This document shows positions 1 through 12,800 of a DNA stretch of 28,879 bases, piece after piece. Location: the sequence record KM389287.1; one strand, written 5' to 3'. Under the pieces are notes generated by a model. That model saw only the letters and a program-made list of their open reading frames with translations, had not been told where the DNA came from and ran no database searches. A program made the translations under genes and the position numbers. The number at the start of each line of letters is the position of its first letter. Position 1 is the first letter of the stretch. Source of the stretch: Escherichia phage Phi06_2987 S.

Positions 1-1
1 T

Positions 2-241
2 GTGACTAAATCAGAATTCCTCCAGAAGGTAGCGGTGCTGGCCGGTGAATGCCATAAGTTGGCCTGTGAGCTGGACATAGGCGATGAACGAATAGAGATG
101 TTCGAGATTTATGAAGTGCTTCGCCGAATCCAGCGGAGTGGTGCAGCCGGTGAAATGCTGGCTGCAACAAACCCTTTACTATCCCCTGGAATACCTGAGG
201 ACACTGAATGGGTAAATTTCCATAAAGAGGATCATGCCTGA
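2..241 (+). CDS. hypothetical phage early-region protein, possibly 5'-truncated by the window edge
   Basis: 79-aa ORF in the track, running from the window edge with GTG at position 2. Its TGA stop overlaps the ATG of the next small ORF (TGATG). No family recognised. Confidence 0.35.
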   Translation: MTKSEFLQKVAVLAGECHKLACELDIGDERIEMFEIYEVLRRIQRSGAAGEMLAATNPLLSPGIPEDTEWVNFHKEDHA

Positions 242-417
242 TGCCTAAGACAATCATCATAACCTTAGAAATTGATGTTCCGGAACACGCTACCGATAGC
301 GACATATCAGATTGGGTAGACGTCGAGTACGGGCAGTGTGGTGGACAAAAATTAGATAACCCCTGCCGTGGCGATGCCACCGAAGTAATAAACCATTCAT
401 GGAAATTTGAGAGCTAA
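241..417 (+). CDS. small hypothetical protein (58 aa)
   Basis: Hand-translated ORF not in the track (<60 aa): ATG 241 to TAA 415-417, MPKTIIITLEIDVPEHATDSD... It is stop/start coupled to the upstream ORF and ends 2 nt before the exonuclease ATG. Function unknown. Confidence 0.3.
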   Translation: MPKTIIITLEIDVPEHATDSDISDWVDVEYGQCGGQKLDNPCRGDATEVINHSWKFES

Positions 418-419
418 AG

Positions 420-992
420 ATGAACGACTTAATGATTGACCTCGAATCAATGGGGAAAAAGCCAAACGCGCCGATCGTCTCAGTTGGTGCTGTCTTTTTT
501 AACCCTCAAACAGGTGAACTAGGCCAAGAATTCTATACAGCCGTCTCGCTTGAAAGCTCAATGGATCAAGGCGCGGTACCGGATGGAGATACGATTCTTT
601 GGTGGCTAAAACAAAGCCCTGAAGCGCGCTCAGCTATCTGCGTTGATGATGCGATGCCTATCACTGATGCACTGTCGGAACTTAGCCATTTCATTCACCG
701 GCATGCATATAATCTCAAATACATGAAGGTCTGGGGTAACGGGGCCACCTTTGACAATGTGATTCTGCGCGGAGCTTACGAACGCGCCGGACGCATTTGC
801 CCGTGGGAATTTTGGAACGATCATGATGTACGCACGATTGTTACCCTCGGTCGCAGTGTTGGTTTCGATCCGAAGCGTGACATGCCATTCATTGGCGATG
901 TTCACAACGCCCTGGCTGATGCGCGCCATCAGGCAAAATATGTGTCAGCAATTTGGCAGAAAATTATCCCTGCCACCAGCACCAACGAGTAA
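420..992 (+). CDS. DnaQ-like 3'-5' exonuclease of the prophage-borne type
   Basis: 190-aa ORF. From memory it resembles the 3'-5' exonuclease domain proteins commonly found next to xis/int in enterobacterial prophages. It sits where lambdoid phages carry early recombination/nuclease genes. Family assignment is from recollection, not a search. Confidence 0.7.
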   Translation: MNDLMIDLESMGKKPNAPIVSVGAVFFNPQTGELGQEFYTAVSLESSMDQGAVPDGDTILWWLKQSPEARSAICVDDAMPITDALSELSHFIHRHAYNLKYMKVWGNGATFDNVILRGAYERAGRICPWEFWNDHDVRTIVTLGRSVGFDPKRDMPFIGDVHNALADARHQAKYVSAIWQKIIPATSTNE

Positions 993-1036
993 ACCACTCA
1001 GTCCGGGTGCAGCCGGGCTTTATGGAGAAGGAAACC

Positions 1037-1246
1037 ATGGCAAAGCTAATGAAAGCGAGTCTCTGGAGTAAGCGCGAATTTACCAAAGACTCCATTCCTG
1101 ACAACCGTACAATTAAACGTTGGGTCGAAAACGGATTACTCATGGGAAGGATTGTAGATGGTTCAGTTTTTGTCTATGAAACCGAAAAGTGGGGAGTTGA
1201 CTCAATTGTTAATCAGGCGGTACGTCAGTTAATAATTGAGGGTTGA
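1037..1246 (+). CDS. xis: excisionase (Xis-like)
   Basis: 69-aa product MAKLMKASLWSKREFTKDSIPDNRTIKRWVENGLL... lying immediately upstream of int. Start at 1037 chosen for the GGAGAAGGAA Shine-Dalgarno; the track's longer form from 953 overlaps the exonuclease. Size, position and basic N-terminus fit lambda-type excisionases. Confidence 0.7.
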   Translation: MAKLMKASLWSKREFTKDSIPDNRTIKRWVENGLLMGRIVDGSVFVYETEKWGVDSIVNQAVRQLIIEG

Positions 1247-1319
1247 CCATGGCAGCAAGGCCACGAAAAAAAGAATACCGCCACCTTCCTGATTATCTTT
1301 TTTTGATAAAGATCGTGGC

Positions 1320-2429
1320 GTGTATAAGTTCACGCTTATAACTGGGAAAAAGAAAACTCTCGGTTCGGATCGAGTAATGGCTATCGCCATCGCCCGAGAA
1401 TATAACCTGAGGATGCGCCCTGAAAATACACCATCGATAGATTCATTAATTCGGGAATCGGGAGGGCTGAATGGTGAAGCCCACCCGTTTTCTGAACATG
1501 TTGATCGCATTATGGAGAGAGCGATCAAAGATGAGCAGCCGTCTAAAAGCACACTTGACGATTGGAATAATGATGCCATCAGGGTTAAAGAATTTTTTAA
1601 TAACATACCCGCATGCGATATTGAGCTTGAGCACGTAAATGCCTACATACGAAATTACCATTCTGAATCGTCGGCCAATGTTCAGAACCGAAAAGTTAGC
1701 TTCCTGAAAAAGCTATTCTCTTATGCTGTTGATGAATCGCTAATGATGGATAACCCTGCAACACGGAAAAAAATGCGGCGTGTCGATAAAAAGGTCCGCC
1801 GGCGACTCACTTTGGAACAGTTCTTGGCCATACATGCAGCTGCTGAACCTTGGCTGAAGACTGCAATGGACCTTGCCATACAAACTACGCAAGCGCGCCT
1901 GGAAGTTTCCCGGATCCGGTACTCGATCAAGGAACCTCAAGAAGGGGTTTGCGGCTGTGTATGGTTCGATCAGGAGGAGGCTGGCATATTCGGAACGCTT
2001 TACATTCACCGGCAAAAAGTGCAGCACAAAGAGGCTTCACACGTCGCTATTCCGATCGGCAGGGCCCTGAAAGAGATCATCGACAACAGCAGAGACAATG
2101 TGGCCAGTCCTTATGTTGTTCACCGGCTTCTGGAAAAGAGAAGCAATCCGATAAGTAAGGAAGTTAACCACCCAACACAGGTGGCCCCTGATTATTTGAG
2201 CAGGGCATTTTCAGAGCTGCGGGACCGGATAGGTGTAGCGGCAGAATTACCTATCAAAGAAAGGCCAACTTTCCACGAAATTAGAGCGCTGGCGGCTCAT
2301 ATTTTCGAAAGACAAGGTATCGATCCGCAGGCAAGGATGGCCCATAGTGATGCAAAATCGACAAAAATTTATACCCAGAATCATGTTGAATGGGTTGAAG
2401 TACCACATGCAGAAATAAAAATGGCATAG
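1320..2429 (+). CDS. int: tyrosine integrase (lambda Int family); N-terminal arm-binding segment lies in another frame from ATG 1249
   Basis: 369-aa ORF from GTG 1320 with a tyrosine-recombinase C-terminal region. The ATG at 1249 encodes MAARPRKKEYRHLPDYLF, which matches the integrase N-terminal arm-binding consensus but hits a stop at 1339. The two frames join only if the T7 run at 1298-1304 were T8. Confidence 0.9.
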   Translation: MYKFTLITGKKKTLGSDRVMAIAIAREYNLRMRPENTPSIDSLIRESGGLNGEAHPFSEHVDRIMERAIKDEQPSKSTLDDWNNDAIRVKEFFNNIPACDIELEHVNAYIRNYHSESSANVQNRKVSFLKKLFSYAVDESLMMDNPATRKKMRRVDKKVRRRLTLEQFLAIHAAAEPWLKTAMDLAIQTTQARLEVSRIRYSIKEPQEGVCGCVWFDQEEAGIFGTLYIHRQKVQHKEASHVAIPIGRALKEIIDNSRDNVASPYVVHRLLEKRSNPISKEVNHPTQVAPDYLSRAFSELRDRIGVAAELPIKERPTFHEIRALAAHIFERQGIDPQARMAHSDAKSTKIYTQNHVEWVEVPHAEIKMA

Positions 2430-2430
2430 A

Positions 2431-2455
2431 AAAAGGCACCTGATGGTGCCTTGAA
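2431..2455 (+). terminator. hairpin just after the int stop (possible terminator)
   Basis: Perfect inverted repeat AAGGCACC-TGAT-GGTGCCTT straight after the int stop codon. There is no long T-run, so termination efficiency is uncertain. A related GGTGCC-containing motif recurs at about 2478-2495. Confidence 0.35.
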
Positions 2456-2551
2456 TAAAGTCTTGAATAAGACACCCGAAGGTGCCTTAAGTGGTTCTCT
2501 TAGCAACGAACTAAGAACGCCCACGCCTCATACCCATAATCATGAGCATCA

Positions 2552-2653
2552 AGGACTTTTGCGGATTTCCCACGTACCTTGCGGTAACGGCAGAAAACCC
2601 AACGGAACCCTTTTGGTGCCGCTTTCGAAGCGATAGATTTCAAACTCATTCAT
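2552..2653 (-). CDS. candidate small protein (33 aa) downstream of ImmA
   Basis: Hand-found ORF MNEFEIYRFESGTKRVPLGFLPLPQGTWEIRKSP preceded by a near-ideal Shine-Dalgarno (TAAGGAGGTG, 6 nt spacer, ATG). Too short for the track. Existence is unproven. Confidence 0.25.
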
Positions 2654-2807
2654 GTAACACCTCCTTACCAAGAGAGATTTTTCCCTTGAACATCTTCCCT
2701 GAAGGTGTTAGTTTCAGGCTGTCTATTGAAGCTGTTCACGGTGGTGACGCCTCTCGGATTCATCACCTTAAGACCCCTTGCATTGGTTGGCGCCAAGCAG
2801 GGGGTTT

Positions 2808-3329
2808 TTACATTTTGTCTAACTGATATCGTGCGGCCACTAATGATACTCCGCATGCCTCAGCTACATTTTCAGCACTCATACCTTTCAGAACATTGGC
2901 ATGAATAGCCGGTACTAATAGCTCACCACTGAAACATTTGGCTTGCCACTCACTACTCTCAAAAGGGCGGATTTTTACCCCTGGAGCAGAACGCGCGAAA
3001 GCAATGTTCCTGTGCATGAGAAGATGTCCCAGTTCATGTGCGGCAGTCATCCTGTCACGCCCTACCCCATTCAAAGCACCCTCGTAAATGTCTTCACGAA
3101 GAATCAATAAATGTTCCTGTGGGTAGGTGAGACCGTGCGTCTCCCCCATTTCCTTCATCCCACCGATATGGAGTTCAAAATCTGGGATCAACTGAGGCAA
3201 TGCGAACTCAATCACCTCCATAACAGGAAACATCAGACCTGTAATACCGAAGGTGCTCCGCAGAGATCTGACGATAGAACGTATTGATTCGCGGTTCTGC
3301 GGGGGTACACGATAATCTTGTCCGCTCAA
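2808..3329 (-). CDS. ImmA/IrrE-family zinc metallopeptidase
   Basis: 173-aa ORF with an HEXXH motif (AAHELGHLLMH). TTG start preceded by AGGAGG. It begins 8 nt after the XRE gene stop, so the pair is likely an operon. Confidence 0.8.
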   Translation of the reverse strand: MSGQDYRVPPQNRESIRSIVRSLRSTFGITGLMFPVMEVIEFALPQLIPDFELHIGGMKEMGETHGLTYPQEHLLILREDIYEGALNGVGRDRMTAAHELGHLLMHRNIAFARSAPGVKIRPFESSEWQAKCFSGELLVPAIHANVLKGMSAENVAEACGVSLVAARYQLDKM

Positions 3330-3337
3330 AATGCCTC

Positions 3338-3697
3338 CTACTGCTGTTTTCGATTCAAAATCTGTCGTAAATTCCGGAAGTCTTCTTCATTTAACTCATC
3401 AAAACTACGAGCGAACGCAATTGCGACTTCACGAGCATGGTCGTTCTTACCTGACAAGCTGATCTCTACTGATTGCTGAGAGTCACGAGCTGCACTGATA
3501 AGCTTTTCTTTTTGTTTTTCATCCGCATTCAGATAGCCAATGATGCTATCAAGCACGGGTTTAGTGACCGCCCTTTTACCAGTTTCGATTGCTGAAAGAT
3601 AAGACGAGGTCATACCCATAGCCTCAGCCATGCTTTTAAGCGTAAGCCCCAGGTCTATGCGCATTTTTCTTACTGTCTTACCAAACGGCGTTAACAT
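3338..3697 (-). CDS. XRE-family helix-turn-helix transcriptional regulator
   Basis: HTH signature LGLTLKSMAEAMGMTSSYLSAIETGKR. Start at 3697 (MLTPFGK...) chosen for a GGAG Shine-Dalgarno; the track ORF extends to 3745 without a ribosome-binding site. Confidence 0.8.
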   Translation of the reverse strand: MLTPFGKTVRKMRIDLGLTLKSMAEAMGMTSSYLSAIETGKRAVTKPVLDSIIGYLNADEKQKEKLISAARDSQQSVEISLSGKNDHAREVAIAFARSFDELNEEDFRNLRQILNRKQQ

Positions 3698-3769
3698 AGT
3701 TGTATCTCCAGTGTGTCCAAGACCCCCATTACTCTTGGGTCTCATTTTAAGTTAACACGCTCCCGACAG

Positions 3770-3819
3770 AAAATCAACAGAATTTTGTTGATTTCTTTCA
3801 TGTCGATTCGTTTACGAAT
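3770..3819. promoter_or_regulatory. palindromic operator candidates upstream of the XRE gene
   Basis: Perfect 7-2-7 palindrome GATTCGT-TT-ACGAATC at 3804-3819 and an imperfect inverted repeat AAATCAACAGAATTTTGTTGATTT at 3770-3793, both in the leader region of the XRE/ImmA operon. Confidence 0.3.
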
Positions 3820-3922
3820 CTTCAGTCTCGTGTTGATTGAAACGTAGGTTGTGTGAAGAAGTATGGGGAAAAACCAGCTGTAACCCATTGATGTGTATAG
3901 TGCGGATTTTGCAAAAAATGCA

Positions 3923-3938
3923 CTGTTTGCATATACAG
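3923..3938. promoter_or_regulatory. LexA (SOS) box candidate
   Basis: CTGTTTGCATATACAG fits CTGT-N8-ACAG with an AT-rich centre. It differs at one position from the box at 4731-4746. Confidence 0.5.
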
Positions 3939-3994
3939 TCAAATGTGTCGCAGCACCAGTATTTACAAGGGTTACAGCGGATTTATCGCAGTGA

Positions 3995-4040
3995 CATGGG
4001 GTGTCGGGGGTCGGAGGTTCAAATCCTCTCGTGCCGACCA
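3995..4040 (+). other. 3' portion (about 46 nt) of a tRNA-Pro gene; probable attP core
   Basis: CATGGGGTGTCGGGGGTCGGAGGTTCAAATCCTCTCGTGCCGACCA contains a T-arm (GGAGG-TTCAAAT-CCTCT), the acceptor 3' strand CGTGCCG, discriminator A and CCA. This matches my recollection of enterobacterial tRNA-Pro(UGG), including the Pro-specific G72 that implies a C1:G72 pair. No matching 5' acceptor strand or D-arm lies upstream, so it is a fragment. Confidence 0.7.
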
Positions 4041-4051
4041 AAAACACATTG

Positions 4052-4080
4052 AAAACCAGCCTCTTACGGCTGGTTTTTTT
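4052..4080 (+). terminator. rho-independent terminator following the tRNA fragment
   Basis: Stem CCAGCC / GGCTGG with loop TCTTAC, followed by T7. Confidence 0.7.
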
Positions 4081-4145
4081 ATGTTTGAAATTTGTACGGG
4101 GAATCATTGGGGAAAAATGGGGGAATAACTCCCGACATTTACACG

Positions 4146-4466
4146 CTACATTACAGGCGATTTATCGTCTTTAACTTGGTTAAGTGTATGTGTAAGAACG
4201 CCGTGTACCGTTACGTCATTCAAAGCTTCCCCTTCTATCGCTTCACCATCTTGAGTGATCAGCGCGTGGCCCATTAGCTTCACGAACTGGTTTCTCCCGT
4301 CCATGCTAACCAGCAACGTATCCCCTCCTTCTGGCTTAAGACTGACGTTTATAACGGCCCAGCCGCATGAAGTTTCAATAACCCGGCAGTTGTTATCTAC
4401 ACCGCAGATAACATCTATTGTCATGCGCTGCTCCTGGTAATCCATGGCTGGCGATGGAAACCCCAT
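4146..4466 (-). CDS. hypothetical protein (106 aa), second gene of a two-gene operon
   Basis: Track ORF whose start overlaps the stop of the upstream 79-aa ORF by 1 nt. No family recognised. Confidence 0.5.
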   Translation of the reverse strand: MGFPSPAMDYQEQRMTIDVICGVDNNCRVIETSCGWAVINVSLKPEGGDTLLVSMDGRNQFVKLMGHALITQDGEAIEGEALNDVTVHGVLTHTLNQVKDDKSPVM

Positions 4467-4705
4467 TAGAAAACCCTCCCCATGTTACGCAGGATCCAGT
4501 ATCGGTTCTCACTTCCGTTTGTCGTCTTATCGGCGAAGTCTGGCTGGTATCGTTCGATCCATGAATTTGCATCTGCCTGGCTGAAATGCCAGTGCCTCTC
4601 CTGCAGTTCAGCGATGAATCTGTCTGTATGCAGGCAGAGATAGCCCTTCGGGTTTTGCTGTATGGCCGCAATAAAAGCAGCACGAATATCCGGTTGACGA
4701 GGCAT
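4466..4705 (-). CDS. hypothetical protein (79 aa), first gene of a two-gene operon
   Basis: Track ORF with a GAGGG Shine-Dalgarno 7-8 nt upstream of the ATG. Its predicted promoter region overlaps the LexA box at 4729-4748. Confidence 0.5.
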   Translation of the reverse strand: MPRQPDIRAAFIAAIQQNPKGYLCLHTDRFIAELQERHWHFSQADANSWIERYQPDFADKTTNGSENRYWILRNMGRVF

Positions 4706-4726
4706 GAACGCACCCTCACTTGCTTA

Positions 4727-4756
4727 TTGACTGTATGCATATACAGTAGTATTTTT
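4727..4756 (+). promoter_or_regulatory. SOS-regulated promoter of the DinI-like gene (-35, LexA box, -10)
   Basis: TTGACT (-35, 4727-4732), 17-nt spacer, TATTTT (-10, 4750-4755). The LexA box gACTGTATGCATATACAGTa (4729-4748) overlaps the spacer. The gene 50 nt downstream is DinI-like, a classic LexA target. Confidence 0.6.
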
Positions 4757-4804
4757 ATGAAAACAGATCAAGCACAGGCAATTTTCACTTATGAGAGGAT
4801 CCGT

Positions 4805-5068
4805 ATGTTTGTTGAACTGGTTTATGACAAGCGAAATGTTGAGGGGCTCCAAGGGGCCAGAGAGATCATCCTGGCTGAACTAACGAAGCGGGTGCACCAG
4901 ATTTTTCCTGATGCCGAAGTGAAGGTAAAGCCGATGCAGGCGAACGGCTTAAATAGTGATGCCAGCAAAAGTGATCGGGAAAAGCTGAACCGTATGCTGG
5001 AGGAAATGTTTGATGAATCTGACATGTGGCTGACGTCTGAATTTCCAACTGTACGGCAGAATGGATAA
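4805..5068 (+). CDS. dinI: DinI-family (MsgA-like) DNA-damage-inducible protein
   Basis: 87-aa product MFVELVYDKRNVEGLQGAREIILAELTKRVHQIFPDAEVKV...DMWLTSE matches the DinI/MsgA pattern as I recall it. GAGAGGA ribosome-binding site upstream; the track ORF (from 4586) is over-extended at its 5' end. Confidence 0.85.
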   Translation: MFVELVYDKRNVEGLQGAREIILAELTKRVHQIFPDAEVKVKPMQANGLNSDASKSDREKLNRMLEEMFDESDMWLTSEFPTVRQNG

Positions 5069-5077
5069 TACTTTGAC

Positions 5078-5101
5078 GGGCAGCCCATCTAGCAGCTGCC
5101 C
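5078..5101. terminator. stem-loop between the convergent dinI-like and invertase genes
   Basis: GGGCAGC ... GCTGCCC inverted repeat with a 10-nt loop, located between the dinI-like stop and the invertase stop. Confidence 0.45.
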
Positions 5102-5110
5102 TTCAATCAT

Positions 5111-5665
5111 TTAAGCCTGTCCCACCGGAAATTTTTTATAAAGCGTGCATACAGCGACATCATAAATTATTGCCACTTGTTTTCTATCCACGCCGTTTAA
5201 TATTAATCTCCCAGCTTGTGCCCATTGCTCGGGAGTTAATTTTGGACGTCTGCCACCTATTCGCCCTTTTTCCCGCGCCGCCGCTAATCCAGCCCGGGTG
5301 CGTTCGACGATTAACTCTCTTTCCATTTCCGCCAGCGCTGACATGATGTGAAATATAAAACGCCCCATTGGACTTGATGTATCAATGCTGTCCGTGAGGC
5401 TCTTAAAGTGAATGCCCCGCTGTCGGAGTTCGTCCACCAGCAGCACTAAATTTCGCATGCTTCGCCCGAGGCGATCTAGTTTCCACACCACCAGTGTATC
5501 GCCCGCATTCAGAGTCCGCAGAAGCTTTTTGAGCGCTGGCCGGTTCGCTACCGTCCCGCTCATTTTTTCTTCAAAAACCTGTTCACATCCTGCGCGTTCG
5601 AGAGCTTGGCGCTGGAGATCTGTATTTTGGTCATTTGTTGACACTCTGACATAGCCAATTTGCAT
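5111..5665 (-). CDS. serine recombinase, DNA invertase (Gin/Pin/Hin/Cin/Min family)
   Basis: MQIGYVRVSTNDQNTDLQRQAL... is the canonical invertase N-terminus with the catalytic serine context; the C-terminal HTH region resembles Gin as I recall it. ATG at 5665 preferred over the upstream GTG at 5674. Confidence 0.9.
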   Translation of the reverse strand: MQIGYVRVSTNDQNTDLQRQALERAGCEQVFEEKMSGTVANRPALKKLLRTLNAGDTLVVWKLDRLGRSMRNLVLLVDELRQRGIHFKSLTDSIDTSSPMGRFIFHIMSALAEMERELIVERTRAGLAAAREKGRIGGRRPKLTPEQWAQAGRLILNGVDRKQVAIIYDVAVCTLYKKFPVGQA

Positions 5666-5699
5666 ATTTTTCACCCAATAAATTCTGCAAAAAAATCAG

Positions 5700-6533
5700 G
5701 TGAAGTTATCGGCCAGGCCGGCCCGTGGCAATCTATTAAACGTCGGTTTGGGAAGCAGCGCTACAAGGAACGCGTACAGCTCATCTGGCGATATACTTTC
5801 TGTAGGGGATTTGGGCTTGGGTGTTGTTGCCCCTGCCGAACAAAACCGTTACGAAAACGCGAGATTAAATGGCTTTTATAACATTGCCTCTGGTTCCGGC
5901 AACGGCCTGCCAACTAATGATGCGGGCTACGGTGTCTGGATGAACCGAAGCTCAAATTACGGCACCTTTGAGTGCTGGCTAAGTGGGCCTGTCGGGAGAA
6001 AAATGTTTAGCCAGGTTATAGGCGGAACAGCAGGTAAATGGTATGAATTTTACCATACAGCTAATACGACAAAAGCCAGTGACGGCACTATCAAAGCTGC
6101 CTCCCCCGTGGCACGAATTGTAACGAGCAAGGATGAGTGCCAGCGTGCTGATATAGCGGAGGATGGTTTTACCTGGTGCGGCTGCGGTGCGGCGAATGCC
6201 GAGGCTGAGGGCATTACTATTTCACGGCTTGATGTCGGCGTTTATGTTCTCACAGGTTCGGCAGGCCTGGCGTCTGAGGGATGGCAGTTACTTCCCCCAA
6301 TGGACCCTGGCGGCATGGGGGAACTGGGTGTAGTTGAGGCAGAGCAAACCGATAGCGGTGGGCTGACTATCCGTCTGTATAAACGCAAATACATCCTGAG
6401 CGATGAAGGTGAAATCATCAAAACCAAAGGTGAACCGATGGACGTACCGGCGAACAGCTGGATCGATGTTCGCTTGGATATGCCCGCAGATTCACTGTTT
6501 AACCAGCGGATGAGCCAGAAGCCGGAGATTTAG
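5700..6533 (+). CDS. alternative tail fiber C-terminal cassette C (likely start-less in this orientation)
   Basis: From site 1 the frame reads ...NVGLGSSATRNAY..., parallel to ...NLGLGSSATKDVG... at the crossover point in the expressed tail fiber. Its C-terminus (VPANSWIDVRLDMPADSLFNQ) and an internal block (TANTTKASDGTIKAASPV) are homologous to cassette A. The ATG at 5700 is probably fortuitous. Confidence 0.65.
   Translation: MKLSARPARGNLLNVGLGSSATRNAYSSSGDILSVGDLGLGVVAPAEQNRYENARLNGFYNIASGSGNGLPTNDAGYGVWMNRSSNYGTFECWLSGPVGRKMFSQVIGGTAGKWYEFYHTANTTKASDGTIKAASPVARIVTSKDECQRADIAEDGFTWCGCGAANAEAEGITISRLDVGVYVLTGSAGLASEGWQLLPPMDPGGMGELGVVEAEQTDSGGLTIRLYKRKYILSDEGEIIKTKGEPMDVPANSWIDVRLDMPADSLFNQRMSQKPEI
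5731..5756. other. invertase crossover site 1 (gix-like), inverted relative to sites 2 and 3
   Basis: ATCTATTAAACG-TC-GGTTTGGGAAGC. Its reverse complement shares cTTCC(c/t)AAACC-GA with sites 2 and 3. It lies 78 bp upstream of the invertase start, at the 5' end of cassette C. Confidence 0.65.
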
Positions 6534-7128
6534 CGTCGCCCTCTAATGCGCTGACGCGGATTGCCAGCTCTTTGATTGCCGCCAGCGCATCGAGCACCAG
6601 AGGATTGAGGTCTAGGGTCATTTTCCCCGACTCCTCAGCCGAGTGAACATATTGCGGATCTATCTTTTCCAGTTCCTGAGCAACAACACCTCGGCGTATC
6701 GTTTTCTCTTCATCAGCAAGGTAGTAGAAGGTCTTAAAATCCATTGCCACGATGTTGGCCAGAGACACTTCTAAATTAAGTTCTCCAGTAACCTTCTTGA
6801 AATTTATGTCCGATGTACCTGCAGACTGCAGCTGCGCCCACGGCACTGATGATTTTGGTGTTTGAGGGTCAGTGGTTGTTAGAAAACGGCTGAATACCGC
6901 ACTACCGTAAGTAATCCACAGCTGCGCAATTCGCTGCTCGGTGTAGGAACTCTGAAACCCACAGCCATTCGTAGGAGCCCACAGAGTATTGCCATCAGCA
7001 TCACTGATGAAGGATGAACTGGCATCTGTGGGCTTATTTTGGAGAACAGCACCAACCCCAAAAGCTCCCACCTGCATAACATTCCCTGCCGCAGTTCCGA
7101 CATCCTTTGTCGCACTACTTCCTAAACC
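6499..7128 (-). CDS. alternative tail fiber C-terminal cassette B with a peptidase S74-like intramolecular chaperone domain; no start codon of its own
   Basis: The frame is open from crossover site 2 (…KVGLGSSATKDVGTAAGNVMQVGAFGVGA…), with an in-frame TGA immediately upstream and no ATG before the shared motif. The C-terminal part (FKTFYYLADEEKTIRRGVVAQELEKIDPQYVH...LVLDALAAIKELAIRVSALEG) resembles the auto-cleaving chaperone domain of phage fibers and spikes. The track ORF is 6499..7077. Confidence 0.6.
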   Translation of the reverse strand, partial: GLGSSATKDVGTAAGNVMQVGAFGVGAVLQNKPTDASSSFISDADGNTLWAPTNGCGFQSSYTEQRIAQLWITYGSAVFSRFLTTTDPQTPKSSVPWAQLQSAGTSDINFKKVTGELNLEVSLANIVAMDFKTFYYLADEEKTIRRGVVAQELEKIDPQYVHSAEESGKMTLDLNPLVLDALAAIKELAIRVSALEGDAKSPASGSSAG

Positions 7129-7142
7129 GACCTTTATTCACC
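7119..7142. other. invertase crossover site 2 (gix-like)
   Basis: TTCCTAAACC-GA-CCTTTATTCACC. The conserved half-site and about 25 nt of adjacent coding sequence are nearly identical to site 3 (2 mismatches over about 37 nt). It sits 13 nt past the stop of the expressed tail fiber. Confidence 0.6.
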
Positions 7143-8489
7143 TTAATCGGCCGTCTCGGCCAGCTCTGCAGCTCTGAGTTTTTGGTTGTATAAAGAATCA
7201 ACAGGCATTTCGACACGGACGGACACAAACTGATCGGAGGGAATATCTACCGGATCGCCATCGTTGATACCCGGCAGCTCGTTCCTGGCGAATGCTGGTG
7301 CTTCAGGATGTGTGCGGTGATAGGTTTTAACCAGCACAGAGCCATCCGCGTTAACCTCATAATCCAACCAGACAAGCGCCTGCTTGTTGCGGTCGGTGGG
7401 GATGTCAAAACCGCCATCAATACCACCCCAGGCAGCGTCTGAATTTAGCCCCTCGCATCCTTCAACCAGATATTCACCAGTGCCCAGGCGGGTTACAGTG
7501 CAGCCCTCAGACTCATCGTTTGTGTGGCACTCGCCATTCATAAAAATTTTCACAACTGGTGATGCAGCTTTAAGCGTGCCATCACTGGCCCTGGTCGTAT
7601 TAGCTGTGCCGTAGAGTGTGTTAAATGTCGAGGTGCTACTTGATCCGGAGGTATTTCTCGCTAACACCCCAACAACGCCTGAATCATAGGCAACACTCAT
7701 AATCGCGTGTGTGTCTTCAGAAGCAAAATATAATGATGCTGAATATGCCCTTTGAGAGTTAACAGATTTGTTGTTGCGAAAGACTCGAGTACCTTTGTCT
7801 AAGAGGTTTGCCCATACATCAGCAACGGTATCTGCATTAAAGGATAGCCCTTTCCCCCCGAACCCAAACGCACCTACTTCCATGATGTTTCCGACGGATG
7901 TTCCGACGTCCTTTGTCGCGCTACTTCCTAAACCGAGGTTTGTGCGAGCGTCTGATGCAGTTTTCGAACCTGTTCCGCCCAGAGATACAGGCACTACACC
8001 ATCTGTAAACCCCAGGTTGCTTCTGGCGTCAGCGGCATTCGTTGCCCCGGTCCCGCCGTCCGAAACTCCAATCGCCCCATTGCTCCCTTTCTGGACCAGT
8101 TTGCCGATCGCCGGAATGGTTACACGAGCGCCGTTGATGGTGACGGTGATGTTCTGGTTTGCTGAGGTAGTGGCGAACGTCTCCCACGCGCCAATATTCT
8201 CGTCATATTCTTTGATGAGCTGCGACATTGCCTGGGCCAGTCCGTCGACGGAGATAATGTCTGACACCAGAATGGCGTATTTCTGGCCGCTCAGCGCCGG
8301 AGAAGCTGCAGGCGTAATCGTCATTGACGTGGCGCTGTTCACGGATGAAATCTGGAACAGCTGCACCGGGTTAGACATCACGATAATCGTCTGGCCAGCG
8401 CGAACCTGGCTGGCCGGTGCAGTCCAGTTTGTACCGGATCCGGTTGCGGTATTTCCGTTAATAGAGATAGTTCCTGTGTTATAAAGCAT
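7143..8489 (-). CDS. side tail fiber protein (constant N-terminal part plus currently fused C-terminal cassette A)
   Basis: Start at 8489 (MLYNTGTISINGNTATGSGTNW) with a GGAG ribosome-binding site. Contains phage tail fiber repeat-like motifs (…ARSNLGF…SLGGTGSKTASDARTNLGLGSSATKDVGT…). Crossover site 3 lies inside the gene. The track ORF extends to 8534. Confidence 0.85.
   Translation of the reverse strand: MLYNTGTISINGNTATGSGTNWTAPASQVRAGQTIIVMSNPVQLFQISSVNSATSMTITPAASPALSGQKYAILVSDIISVDGLAQAMSQLIKEYDENIGAWETFATTSANQNITVTINGARVTIPAIGKLVQKGSNGAIGVSDGGTGATNAADARSNLGFTDGVVPVSLGGTGSKTASDARTNLGLGSSATKDVGTSVGNIMEVGAFGFGGKGLSFNADTVADVWANLLDKGTRVFRNNKSVNSQRAYSASLYFASEDTHAIMSVAYDSGVVGVLARNTSGSSSTSTFNTLYGTANTTRASDGTLKAASPVVKIFMNGECHTNDESEGCTVTRLGTGEYLVEGCEGLNSDAAWGGIDGGFDIPTDRNKQALVWLDYEVNADGSVLVKTYHRTHPEAPAFARNELPGINDGDPVDIPSDQFVSVRVEMPVDSLYNQKLRAAELAETAD
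7925..7948. other. invertase crossover site 3 (gix-like), inside the tail fiber gene
   Basis: TTCCTAAACC-GA-GGTTTGTGCGAG. This resembles the Mu gix site (recalled as TTCCTGTAAACC-GA-GGTTTTGGATAA). The central dinucleotide falls in codon positions 2-3 of the Leu in ...TNLGLG.... Confidence 0.65.
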
Positions 8490-8500
8490 ATTTTCTCCAG

Positions 8501-8527
8501 GCAATAAAAAACCCCGCCGAGGCGAGG
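8501..8527 (-). terminator. rho-independent terminator between the lipoprotein gene and the tail fiber gene
   Basis: On the minus strand: CCTCGCC-TC-GGCGGGG followed by TTTTTT. Confidence 0.45.
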
Positions 8528-8547
8528 TTTGCATTGAAAGTCATGAG

Positions 8548-8781
8548 TTATTTACATGTCGTGCTTGTGAATGTGTTCGCACTTACCCAGCGCCAGTTAA
8601 AGGGATATCCGGCCCGGTATTGCGTCTGGTTGTTTTGCTTTCGAACGGCGTAAATCATAACGGTATTCTCATGGCCACCCATATATGCCGTGCCGCTGCA
8701 AATCGGTTCCTGTTTCTCAAGTACACCAGCGCAACCTGAAAGCATGGCAGCGCAAGCCATACCGATAAGAAGCTTAATCAT
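8548..8781 (-). CDS. small lipoprotein, possibly a Cor-like superinfection exclusion protein
   Basis: 77 aa. N-terminal signal peptide with lipobox LSGC (MIKLLIGMACAAMLSGCAG). Its size and position between J and the tail fiber fit Cor-type lipoproteins of lambdoid phages; the Cor assignment itself is inference. Confidence 0.55.
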   Translation of the reverse strand: MIKLLIGMACAAMLSGCAGVLEKQEPICSGTAYMGGHENTVMIYAVRKQNNQTQYRAGYPFNWRWVSANTFTSTTCK

Positions 8782-8892
8782 TTTGATGATATCCAGAGGT
8801 ATTCATGAACTTAGACAATACCAACATGAAAGAGGTGGGTATAATTGATTTGATAGATCAATTATCAGTTATTGATCGCCCAAAACGATCAA

Positions 8893-9567
8893 TCAGTCAT
8901 AGGCCGCTGTATTTATCGCGGTTAAGGAAATTCCAGTATTCGTTACCCCTCCCGGAGAGCCTGTGCCAGTGGAGGTCCCCCCTGCGTTTATCCTCGTATT
9001 GGCCCCGTCAAACCTGCACGCCGAATAAGCATTAATGGTGTAGATTGTCGGAGGCCGGGTTGAGTTATTCACAACGATGCTTTGGCCAAGCTGTGCAGGT
9101 GCAACAGCCCATGGCCCGCTAAGTGTCTGATCGATATTTATCCCTCCGTTTGCGCCAGGCGTTCCAATTGTCTGTAGGTCGGACAACACCCGGGACTCAT
9201 TAGTGAGCACCAGCTTTCCTGCCGCATCCCAGATGGCCATCCCCCATTTCGGTAACGTCTGGGGAAATATGGCAAATATATATGCGGTTAACGTGAAGCT
9301 CTTGTTATAGGGATTAACCCCCGCGACATATACATTTCCTCCGTTCCGGTAAGATATTACTGGCGTGGGCTGGGCGGTATTTGTGGTCCTGATAAATACC
9401 ATCACAGGGTAGTCAGCATTTAATGCAATATTCTGAGCAACCTGCTGCGAACTGCCATTAGCAGAGGAGTTGAAAGTGTACTTGCCGTAAAGACAAAAAG
9501 GCGTTGACTGGGGCGTTACAAATGGGTTCCCGTTGTCCATTAATATCATCGCGCCAAATTCGGCCAT
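8893..9567 (-). CDS. hypothetical phage protein (224 aa), coupled to J
   Basis: Track ORF whose start overlaps the stop of the upstream 100-aa ORF (ATGA). No signal peptide, so it is not Lom-like. Likely tail-tip associated. Confidence 0.55.
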   Translation of the reverse strand: MAEFGAMILMDNGNPFVTPQSTPFCLYGKYTFNSSANGSSQQVAQNIALNADYPVMVFIRTTNTAQPTPVISYRNGGNVYVAGVNPYNKSFTLTAYIFAIFPQTLPKWGMAIWDAAGKLVLTNESRVLSDLQTIGTPGANGGINIDQTLSGPWAVAPAQLGQSIVVNNSTRPPTIYTINAYSACRFDGANTRINAGGTSTGTGSPGGVTNTGISLTAINTAAYD

Positions 9568-9869
9568 TATGCTTTCTCCATGAAAACGACCACTTCACAC
9601 TTTGAGGCCGGATAATTACCCAGACCTACAGAAGATGCAGCGCTTACGGTTATTGTGCTCCCTGACGCGACAATGCGCCGCCCTACGCTGTTACCTCCTT
9701 CATCAAGTGAAAGAACAAAACCAACTTTCATTCCTGAGGGCACCGTAAAAGACCAGCTGCCGGAGGTTTGCCCGGCAGCCAGCTGTATTCGCCCAACGAC
9801 GGAAACGGGTTTGATGCCATAGTTGTTGGGTTTTCCTGAAGCATCCCAGGTCTGTATTCCATAAGCCAT
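9567..9869 (-). CDS. hypothetical phage protein (100 aa), coupled to J
   Basis: Track ORF starting 2 nt from the J stop. No family recognised. Confidence 0.55.
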   Translation of the reverse strand: MAYGIQTWDASGKPNNYGIKPVSVVGRIQLAAGQTSGSWSFTVPSGMKVGFVLSLDEGGNSVGRRIVASGSTITVSAASSVGLGNYPASKCEVVVFMEKA

Positions 9870-9870
9870 T

Positions 9871-12800
9871 TCAGAATACTCCCGTTAATCGGCCAACCTG
9901 CACCCTAAGAACATTACTGCCATCTTTGACGCTGATCGTCTGATTTGTCAGTTTCATGGCTCCCTCACCAGCAGTCGAACCGTAGTTCTCAAACGTCCCC
10001 CCTTTATCAAGCTTCCAGCCAGCAGAACCAGCAACATAATTGTTCGACTGGATAAAATTACCAATCTTTGCGTTGCTGATAGTGCCGTCCTGGATGAAAC
10101 TGGCCCGGATGAATGTCTGCCCGTTCTGGATCACGAACGGCAAAGCTACGCCGTTACCGGCAGCTGTCGTGACTGCGAAGCGGTCAGCCAGGAAGATGAC
10201 CTGTGACTGCATTCCGGACGGCGTATTCTCCACGCCGATCCCCATCCCTGCGGCGTAATACTGACCATTGCTGGAGACACCAACCTTGATGCTGTACATC
10301 GCCTTCAGATCACCGTTAACGTTCGCTATGGCCTGAGCGTTAGTGGTAATGGCTGATGTGTGTCCGTTGACGGTCGCTGTGATCCCGTTTATCTGCGTGG
10401 CCGTGGCCTGCTGGTAATCGGAGAACGTCTGGTTCAGGCTGTTGATAGATGCCTTGTTGCCGTTGACATCCGTCTGCAGGCTCAGCAGAGAGCGCGCCGT
10501 TGCCTCCTTCTCGTTAACGATTACCTCATCAATACGATCCAGCTGCGCACTGTTACCGGCGACCGTCGCGGAAAGCCTTTTGCGTGTGGCCACCTGCGCC
10601 AGCCCGTTCTGGATAATGGCAATGGCTGAGTTCTTAACCCCGCCCGTCATGCCGTCCATAGACACGCTGATGCTGTCGATTCGCTGGCCCAGCGCGGTAT
10701 CAGCCGTTGCGACGGTCTGCTCAAGATCTGATAGAGAGGAAGATACATCACCGACCGTGCTCGAAAGCTCATTAACACTGGTCTGAACCTGCCCAATGTC
10801 CTGCGCGTTTTTTGCGATTTCCTGCGCCTGGAGCTCAAGTTCATCGTTGGCCTGTTTGATGTCGTCAGCCATGCCAGCAATTTTTTCATTGCTGTCCACC
10901 GCGTTCTCGATCAGGTCTTTGAACGTATCGGAGTCTTTAATTTCCTCCAGAATCACATCTGTGATATCGGAAACATCGATGCTGGCCTGTCCTCGCACCC
11001 ATTCTGTGTACCCTGATTCGTTGCCGCTGCGGTCCACCAGCTGCGCGCGGTACCAGAAAATCTGCCCAGCCTTAAGGCCCATCTGCTGATATTTGCGCTG
11101 CGGGTAAGGCACATCGGCCAGCAGCATGGCATCGTCTTCAGTACCGGTCAGGCTGTACTGAATTTCCGTCTTCAGCGTGTCTTCGGTATTCGCCGGGAAT
11201 CCCCAGTTCAGCTCAATACCGAATACCACGTTTTCAGAAGCGATGAAGCCAACCGGCTTCGGTGGGTTTCCCACTTTACCCGTCAACGTTTTCTCTTCTG
11301 AATAGCCCCACCCAGATGAAATTTCGGCGGCATTGATGGCACGCACGCGAACCAGGTAGCGTCCTGCATAAATCCCCGGAACATCGAATGACGTGGTGGA
11401 GCTGCGCGGCACATTCACCCAGTTCCCGTCATTGCGACGCCACTGTGCCTCATACGCGATAGCATTTTTCGCCTGGTCCCAGCTGACGCGCATGGTCTCA
11501 ACGCTGATATTCTGCTGAACGACAGAAAACGAACTGATCGCGATATTAGCTGGCGGGGACTGATTACCGGGCGGAATTACACTTATTGGCCGCTGGTCGA
11601 CGATGGCGCCGGTATCGATACGGGCATACTTATCCGGATCGTGAAAAGCACCAGTAATAGAAAACGTGCCGTCGTTATTATCAGAGACGCTGATAACACA
11701 ATATTGCTGTGCATAAAGCTCGTCGGATTCGACAATCCATACCGATTCGACTGCCGGTGTTTCGCTGTATGCCGTGGTCACGGTGACAGCCCGGCCGTTT
11801 ACGCTCTGAATCGTCCTGCTCTGCGATGCGCCAGACGGCAGGTTAACCATAAGACGGCTTCCGGCAACGGCAGCGGAATCACGATCAAGCGTGATAACGC
11901 GACCATTAACCGCGCTGATACGCCCTCCCATCACCTTTCCGGATAACAGCTCATCGGCAACCGCGATAATATAACCAGGCTGTGGAATGTTGCCGTCCAG
12001 ACCAACATCAAACGATACGATGCGATCCTTGTTATTGGTCTGAATCCCCCAGCGCCCCTTACGGTTTGCCTCAGACTGCCGGGTACAGCCAATGGCTGTC
12101 ATCTCGAGCTGGTTTGTGCCAAAGCGAGCGACGAGCTCCTGTTCAAAAACCGGCTCCATCGCATCTGCGTAGGCATTACCCGGATCTGACCAGGAAACCA
12201 GCGCGGTGGTATAGCGGTTTTTAGTGGTGCTGCCAGAATAGGTAAAGCGGCCGTCAACCACGTTAGCGCGGGTGTAGCTGTAATCAACATCGCGGGGCAT
12301 ATCTGCCAGTGCAACGATTTGATTGCCGCCCCAGTACGTCATGCCACGGAATATCGCCGCAAAATCACGTAACACGGTATAGGCGTCATTCCTCTCCTGC
12401 ACGTACACGTTACAGGTATAGCGAGGCTCGGTGCCGCTACCGCCTTTACCATCAGGAACCAGCTGATCGCAATATTGTGCGACCTGGTAAAGCGTCCATT
12501 TATCAATATTTGCCGCCGTCAGGCGGTCGCCAAGTCCAAAACGGTCGCTCACCACCAGATCGTAAAAAATCCACGCCGGATTGTCCGTCCATGCCCACTT
12601 AAACGCCCCCGTCCAGGTACCGCTATAGGTCCGGGTTTCCGGATCGTAAGTATCCGGCACGCGGATAACGCGCCCGCGCGGTTCACAGGAAATTTGCGGG
12701 ATGGAGCCGTTAAACTGGCTTGAATCGAATTCAATGTACAGCAGCGCGGTGTTTGGATAGCGCAGTTTGGCATCGATTACCTCCGTGTAGCTCTGCAGCG

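Follow-up and report, generated by a model that had tools for sequence, protein, structure and literature searches.

A phage attachment site matching the tRNA-Pro gene proL of Escherichia coli

Within the window, the 28,879-nucleotide stretch of Escherichia phage Phi06_2987 S DNA analyzed here in full (record KM389287.1), the 3' part of a tRNA-Pro gene stands between an integrase gene and the tail genes. Does this fragment mark the site through which the phage integrates, and if so, into which host gene and by what route? The general principle of integration into tRNA genes (tDNAs), and the classes of subsite within them that are used, have been described (PMC4383910, PMC10865867). We conclude, with little remaining doubt, that positions 3858 to about 4130 are the attP of a lambdoid temperate phage, at which a lambda-type tyrosine integrase recombines with an attB lying inside E. 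coli proL. The features of the region are collected in Table 1.

Table 1. Features of the integration region, in window coordinates
Feature	Position	Strand	Basis or remark
69-aa ORF directly upstream of int	1037..1246	+	"hypothetical protein" in SZQ1, CX21, Flotzy, Eeyore
int, lambda-type tyrosine integrase, frameshifted	1249..2429	+	domains of intact orthologue; frame from ATG 1249 meets stops
T7 homopolymer, cause of the frameshift	1298..1304	+	nine of nine related copies have T8
1,441-bp cargo insertion between int and P arm	2417..3857	.	homology breakpoints against relatives
ImmA/IrrE (Peptidase_M78) metalloprotease, CapP-like	2808..3329	-	PF06114 3.6e-9; PADLOC capP 1.1e-10
XRE-family HTH regulator, CapH-like; PGAP start at 3697	3338..3745	-	HTH_31, HTH_3 ~1e-10; PADLOC capH 4.2e-10; annotated in SZQ1
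24-bp palindrome upstream of XRE, putative cargo operator	3771..3794	.	unique in window; function inferred
P arm of attP, 137 bp	3858..3994	+	kept by int in Flotzy, Eeyore, CX21 attR, L011, L013; at attR in SZQ1
GGGGAAA, candidate arm-type Int site in P arm	3865..3871	+	in all four aligned relatives
attP common core	3995..4044	+	50 bp identical to E. coli attB
tRNA-Pro(GGG) proL, 3' 46 nt	3995..4040	+	host match, alignment, ARAGORN anticodon
Anticodon loop ATGGGGT, anticodon GGG at 3998-4000	3996..4002	+	most likely strand-exchange overlap
P' arm of attP	4045..4145	+	joined to intact proL at SZQ1 attL; kept in Flotzy, Eeyore
Intrinsic terminator given by phage to rebuilt proL	4051..4080	+	fold, homology; present at SZQ1 attL
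Three GGGGAAW, 11-bp spacing (4098, 4109, 4120), candidate P'1-P'3	4098..4126	+	clustering; Flotzy, Eeyore
UmuD-like protein gene (PHROG 3469), first on P' side	4146..4466	-	PHROG 1e-47; annotated likewise in Flotzy, Eeyore

The tRNA fragment, its host counterpart and its terminator

Positions 3995-4040 read CATGGGGTGTCGGGGGTCGGAGGTTCAAATCCTCTCGTGCCGACCA, and all 46 of these nucleotides match the 3' part of an E. coli tRNA-Pro gene, from the last base of the 5' strand of the anticodon stem to the CCA of tRNA-Pro(GGG), proL. When window 3850-4250 was compared by megablast with the 5,426 complete E. coli genomes, every genome matched, each time under an annotated tRNA-Pro, and the left end of every match fell exactly at window position 3995. 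E. coli matches confined to the core are 100% identical (E = 1e-14). The median number of matching places per genome is one, and the fragment therefore maps uniquely; in the whole window, too, the core is present in a single copy. The host target lies between yejM and yejO, and the anticodon assigned to it by ARAGORN, GGG, makes it proL. The sequence-only reading, which had predicted a tRNA-Pro(UGG) in the host, was thus right about the amino acid and the match but wrong about the anticodon. Prophages or islands have already been reported at this gene in Shigella flexneri 1c (PMC4924310) and in E. coli O121:H19 (PMC8767318).

The 5' half of the gene is missing from the phage. ARAGORN called 0 tRNA genes over the window, and an Rfam search of positions 3500-4600 in a permissive E-value mode (E <= 1) returned no tRNA match; two sub-threshold chance matches from the same run (STnc50, rnk leader) fall on the terminator hairpin. 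The 31-nt 5' half of proL was found nowhere in the window with up to 3 mismatches allowed. The earlier description of the locus as roughly the last 46 nt of a tRNA-Pro gene lacking its 5' half is therefore accurate, and the tRNA gene detection that it proposed as a check gave no complete tRNA with either program.

The fragment is followed by a hairpin with an 11-bp stem (4051-4078) and a T-run extending to 4080. Its predicted folding energy is -18.9 kcal/mol (z = -6.0), and 0 of 200 shuffled sequences were as stable. The block of identity with E. coli ends before this terminator, which has diverged from its host homologue, the proL terminator, and differs from it by a compensatory change of A-U to G-C in the stem. 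The phage-type stem, CCAGCC/GGCTGG, is found in the host flanks of attR sites in other Enterobacteriaceae (L011-L014), and in one of these, L013, the first 22 bases after the tRNA are the same as those of the phage save at one position. On these comparisons, the tRNA 3' part and terminator together look like a copy of a proL locus from an enterobacterium other than E. coli, and in hosts of that kind with the phage-type stem the block of identity would reach into the terminator. The sequence-only reading had called the hairpin the rho-independent terminator of the tRNA itself. A terminator of this type does follow the fragment and is homologous to that of proL, but it is closer to the terminators of non-E. 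coli Enterobacteriaceae than to that of E. coli. We also considered whether the terminator could act as a retroregulator resembling lambda sib and specific to the attP state. This was rejected: a homologous host terminator follows int in the prophage, and the attP and prophage states are therefore alike for int.

Lysogen junctions and the configuration of the window

The status of the site as attP is established by lysogen junctions, for which the tRNA fragment alone would be insufficient. In E. coli SZQ1 the two flanks that meet in the window are 46.9 kb apart, at opposite ends of a prophage. The tail-side flank (window 3995-4250) runs on from an intact tRNA-Pro beside yejM with 99.2% identity, and the int-side flank (window 3400-4044) is 100% identical to a locus that runs into yejO, so that the gene context in the lysogen is yejM, proL, prophage, yejO. 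A four-way alignment of the window, an empty site (strain 9FA) and both SZQ1 junctions gives the classic pattern: attL consists of the left of attB and the right of attP, attR of the left of attP and the right of attB, and a 50-bp block, 3995-4044, is common to all four. This block, which is the extent of identity between attP and attB, is made up of the 46 nt of tRNA and AAAA.

At SZQ1 attL, the host 5' half is followed by the core and then by window sequence from 4045 onward, and ARAGORN recognizes an intact 77-nt tRNA-Pro(GGG). At attR, window sequence up to 3994 is followed by the core, the host terminator and yejO, and ARAGORN calls no tRNA. In essence, lysogens have a proL in which the host promoter and 31 nt of 5' sequence lead into the phage's 46 nt and terminator, and the displaced host 3' fragment, with the host terminator, follows int, cargo and P arm. 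Compared over its whole length, the SZQ1 prophage proves to be circularly permuted relative to the window, positions 1-4044 of which correspond to the int end and positions 3995-5230 to the proL end, with the structural genes next. Since the SZQ1 junctions are the predicted recombinants of the window's attP, the proposal that the phage integrates into a tRNA-Pro gene and restores its 3' end is borne out. An identical int-side arm with the XRE/ImmA genes is present in five complete E. coli genomes, and the P' arm in 15, at 93-99.5% identity. Over positions 5230-10855, the window is mosaic relative to the SZQ1 prophage.

That a fragment of this kind is no proof of an active attP is illustrated by strain FDAARGOS_1304 (NZ_CP069990.1; L010 ~3985-4140), where a proL 3' fragment with 1 mismatch lies inside a prophage by ssrA with no adjoining integrase. 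It is accompanied by a homologous terminator, a P'-like arm and GGGGAA-like motifs, its left flank is unrelated, and its neighbors are a LEM-3-like GIY-YIG gene on one side and a dinI pseudogene on the other. Similarity to proL reaches about 17 nt further 5' than in the window. This fragment may be a fossil or a variant att half.

The contiguous attP-type junction was found in none of the 5,426 complete E. coli genomes, in which no place covers at least 80% of window 3850-4250. Outside the window the contiguous arrangement is recorded only in two isolated phages, Flotzy (PP925827) and Eeyore (PP925821), in whose genomes an unbroken stretch runs from int through P arm, core, terminator and P' arm to the UmuD-like gene. 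Their int-attP stretch is 96-97% identical to the window at the DNA level, and Flotzy Int shows 99% amino acid identity. This contiguous order, together with the position of the flanks at opposite ends of the SZQ1 prophage, upholds the earlier view that the window has the attP form and is not a prophage end. The window is an attP-type junction, a form in which virion DNA, an excised circle and a tandem-lysogen junction are all alike from the window alone. The remaining genes of the window are of lambdoid type, with 92-94% identity to mEp237 and N15 in the tail and head genes and matches to HK225 and phi80 that are weaker and only partial.

The attP is unannotated in the Flotzy and Eeyore records, where short "hypothetical protein" coding sequences are placed over the P arm and core (L006 3688-3912 and L007 3688-3918, respectively); these are almost certainly spurious gene calls. 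Open reading frames across the att site of the window (3742-4107 on the minus strand; 3837-4052 and 3943-4128 on the plus strand) were likewise rejected as genes. Three viral contigs that matched a pattern of P-arm end, core and phage-type terminator stem were at first taken for attP; on inspection they proved to be attR in hosts other than E. coli, the pattern having caught them because the proL terminators of those hosts also have the CCAGCC/GGCTGG stem. The only matches in a scan of genome contigs were an attR of Enterobacter wuhouensis and a contig of 44.6 kb from a Geobacteraceae bin. This contig (L015; DAINBV010000046.1, 44,556 nt, from a metagenome-assembled genome with that label) is 99% identical to window 418-4049, XRE/ImmA genes included, and stops 9 nt past the tRNA CCA. 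It is probably an enterobacterial prophage contig that was broken at the att repeat and mis-binned.

Farther along the tail side, a DNA invertase gene of the Hin/Gin type (5111-5674, minus strand) adjoins genes for tail fibers and tail-fiber assembly (region 5111-7607), and a 70-nt imperfect inverted repeat (6057-6126 and 7538-7607) lies in opposed tail-fiber ORFs. The arrangement probably represents an invertible host-range segment of the Mu G or P1 C kind.

Recombination, the integrase gene and the cargo beside it

The recombination that these junctions record can be outlined as follows. Crossover within the 50-bp core rebuilds proL from the phage's 46 nt and terminator and pushes the host 3' fragment to attR, as the sequences show. 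The anticodon loop, a 7-nt stretch at the core's left edge, is the proposed place of strand exchange. Identity begins 1 nt 5' of this loop, and anticodon-centered crossovers form the larger class of tDNA att sites (PMC4383910); for both reasons the loop is the most likely 7-bp overlap, with the proviso that the sequence alone allows any point in the 50 identical bp. The rest of the core and the terminator would then be kept by selection for a working proL and not for recombination.

The proposed targets of the N-terminal domain of Int are GGGGAAW repeats, of which the P arm holds a single copy and P' three copies at helical spacing. This motif matches 16 places in the window, 4 of them on the plus strand within about 270 bp around the core, a clustering with a local Poisson P of ~2e-5, or ~0.004 when corrected for scanning of the window. 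All four core-flanking copies are kept in Flotzy and Eeyore. On this evidence they are candidate arm-type sites, with a layout like that of lambda P'1-P'3. A 17-nt direct repeat also flanks the core with a spacing of about 180 bp (3972-3988, TTACAGCGGATTTATCG; 4151-4167, TTACAGGCGATTTATCG); its P'-side copy is conserved in relatives and its P-side copy is variable, and the pair is an alternative candidate for a protein-binding site. A scan with the IHF consensus gave one match with 1 mismatch at 3881-3893. The window-wide count was below chance expectation, and this IHF-like site, being no better than chance, was dropped as evidence.

The integrase itself is best judged from the intact orthologue of SZQ1, a protein of 393 aa in which Arm-DNA-bind_1, Phage_int_SAM_5 and Phage_integrase all score above the Pfam cut-offs and which matches the integrase family PHROG 1 at 1.4e-31. 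Its residues 4-373 align to the lambda Int structure 1z1b (E = 3.8e-14); the HxxR and H motifs fall within this alignment, and a Tyr comes just beyond it, at 375. In the window the gene is frameshifted. We compared nine int copies from eight distinct elements, namely SZQ1 (two overlapping loci), CX21, Flotzy, Eeyore, L011, L012, L013 and L015: the homopolymer is T8 in 9/9 of them and T7 in the window only, a 1-nt deletion. The resulting -1 frameshift costs the window's Int about 24 N-terminal residues of its arm-binding domain. It is the sole indel relative to SZQ1 across window 1-4044, and the large structural genes of the window are intact. The difference may be a real inactivation or a lone homopolymer error, either being possible, and unless it is a sequencing error this copy of int may be unable to use its own attP.

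Two smaller elements border the gene. The 69-aa ORF upstream has no Pfam or PHROG match; its position, in a gene order like that of lambda, makes it a possible excisionase. A hairpin (2430-2460; AAGGCACC-TGAT-GGTGCCTT) lies right behind the stop codon of int, on the left border of the cargo, and could be a transcription stop or processing site for int.

The distance from the int stop codon at 2429 to the core at 3995 is 1,565 bp, as the earlier figure of 1.6 kb had it, and this unusual separation is due to the insertion of a self-contained XRE/ImmA module just outside the P arm. Homology to Flotzy, Eeyore and CX21 ends at 2416 and restarts at 3858. The 1,441 bp between these points replace some 17 bp of the relatives, which vindicates the description of the two genes as cargo separating int from the site, and int abuts the P arm, with no XRE/ImmA, in Flotzy, Eeyore, CX21, L011 and L013. 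The insertion alters the C-terminal end of Int, …EIKMA as against …EIVFKAG. Its breakpoint at 3858 is 7 bp outside the first GGGGAAW motif, a position that fits insertion just beyond the functional attP.

The slot between int and the P arm is used repeatedly. The XRE/ImmA pair occupies it in the window, SZQ1 and L015, and nothing does in Flotzy, Eeyore and CX21. In an IMG/VR contig (L012, 2259-3405) and in Enterobacter wuhouensis (L014), it holds a different two-gene module, encoding proteins of 257 aa (with a faint TPR match) and 128 aa; that of L012 gave no significant match to Pfam, PHROGs or PADLOC. The same XRE/ImmA pair adjoins dinI and GIY-YIG remnants in another, unrelated prophage (L005). 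CapH/CapP-regulated defense modules are defined by a pair that adjoins a regulated effector operon; the pair described here, whose best matches among the defense profiles of PADLOC are CapH and CapP, has no effector gene with it in the stretch from int to the P arm, and it does not constitute such a module. One could imagine that in this recurrent slot the pair would serve as a DNA-damage sensor acting on the adjoining integration module, as a second, SOS-linked control of integration or excision, and that the T8 tract of int, conserved and prone to slippage, would be a further on/off control. The integration module would be the putative target since int is convergent to the pair and the promoter region of the pair faces the att site. 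This is a highly speculative suggestion to which we give very little credence.

Alternative readings and relation to known systems

Phages often carry tRNA genes, and the fragment could in principle be a complete phage-encoded tRNA-Pro or a decayed pseudogene unrelated to integration. The failure of ARAGORN and Rfam to find a tRNA and the absence of the 5' half speak against this, the 60 nt upstream are conserved P arm and not tRNA, and the left boundary of the fragment is the exact junction of recombination in the lysogen, leaving such a reading with a negligible chance of being correct. No greater weight is due to the view that the fragment is the end of an integrated prophage, attL or attR, with host DNA on one side. 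Several "viral" contigs of IMG/VR with the same P arm and core are indeed attR, with host DNA on the right, but the right flank in the window is phage DNA (UmuD-like, DinI, invertase, tail-fiber and tail genes), the left flank carries int and the two lie at opposite ends of the SZQ1 prophage; the att alignment and the prophage comparison refute this reading. A junction between tandem prophages in a polylysogen, or a circle excised in a lysogen culture, would fit the window taken by itself as well as free phage DNA does, and tandem islands at tDNAs are known, Islander listing 125 tandem arrays (PMC4383910). Such a source is nonetheless improbable, given that 0 of the 5,426 complete E. coli genomes hold an attP-type junction and that the contiguous arrangement is recorded only in isolated phages.

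A more substantial alternative concerns the state of the phage and not the identity of the site. The attP sequence could be correct but orphaned: a real frameshift in int would bar integration and excision by the phage's own Int, and the DNA would for that reason have been recovered in the attP form. The restriction of T7 to the window among all copies compared argues for this, as does its being the only indel in 4 kb relative to SZQ1, and the intact large structural genes reveal no spread of homopolymer errors. On the other hand, a 1-nt homopolymer difference is the commonest kind of sequencing or assembly error, the rest of int is 99% identical to functional-looking orthologues, and any assembly derived from virions shows the attP form whatever the status of int. 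An orphaned site is thus possible, and we consider it the less probable case.

The preferred reading, a standard tDNA-targeting attP with a textbook mechanism, is well supported. It leaves the understanding of tRNA-targeted integration unchanged, and its main value is in annotation. A literature search found no paper on this particular att site. The exact attP, attB, attL and attR are now fixed for a lineage of lambda-type integrases that targets proL in E. coli and Enterobacter, and the bounds of a mobile XRE/ImmA module are defined to the base. The mapped trio of Int, attP and attB, whose 50-bp core belongs to a tRNA gene that is both conserved and dispensable, could serve as an integration tool.

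Comparison with lambda emphasizes what is shared as well as what is not. The Int proteins align over nearly their full length, the N-terminal arm-binding domain included. In both phages a small ORF, int and attP stand in this order, int is transcribed toward attP and the tail-fiber genes lie beyond, and the attP described here, some 270 bp in all, has candidate arm sites to the left and right of the core, including a tandem set of three in P'. However, the lambda core is 15 bp and its attB is intergenic, whereas here a core of 50 bp is embedded in a tRNA gene, with a terminator behind it; the candidate arm-site motif is unlike that of lambda, and a 1.44-kb module separates int from the P arm.

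The elements of the anticodon-centered ("A") subsite class in Islander (Hudson, Lau and Williams 2015, PMC4383910) share with this phage a 3' tDNA fragment in attP, a tyrosine integrase, a regenerated tDNA at one junction with the displaced fragment at the other, and an edge of identity at the anticodon loop. There is no difference in principle, other than that int is here located at the junction with the displaced fragment, far from the regenerated tRNA, and not right behind it. P4-like satellites and islands also use the tRNA-Pro between yejM and yejO (E. coli O91:H21 FWSEC0008; the gtrIC region of Shigella flexneri SFL1613, PMC4924310). Their integrase is of the P4/CP4-57 type, and its gene, some 210-220 bp downstream, points away from the intact tRNA, in contrast to the lambda-type Int of the phage, which lies at the opposite end of the prophage and is transcribed toward the core. 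Flotzy and Eeyore agree with the window from int through P arm, core, terminator and P' arm to the UmuD-like neighbor, all in the attP configuration, and differ in that their int is intact and the XRE/ImmA insertion is absent.
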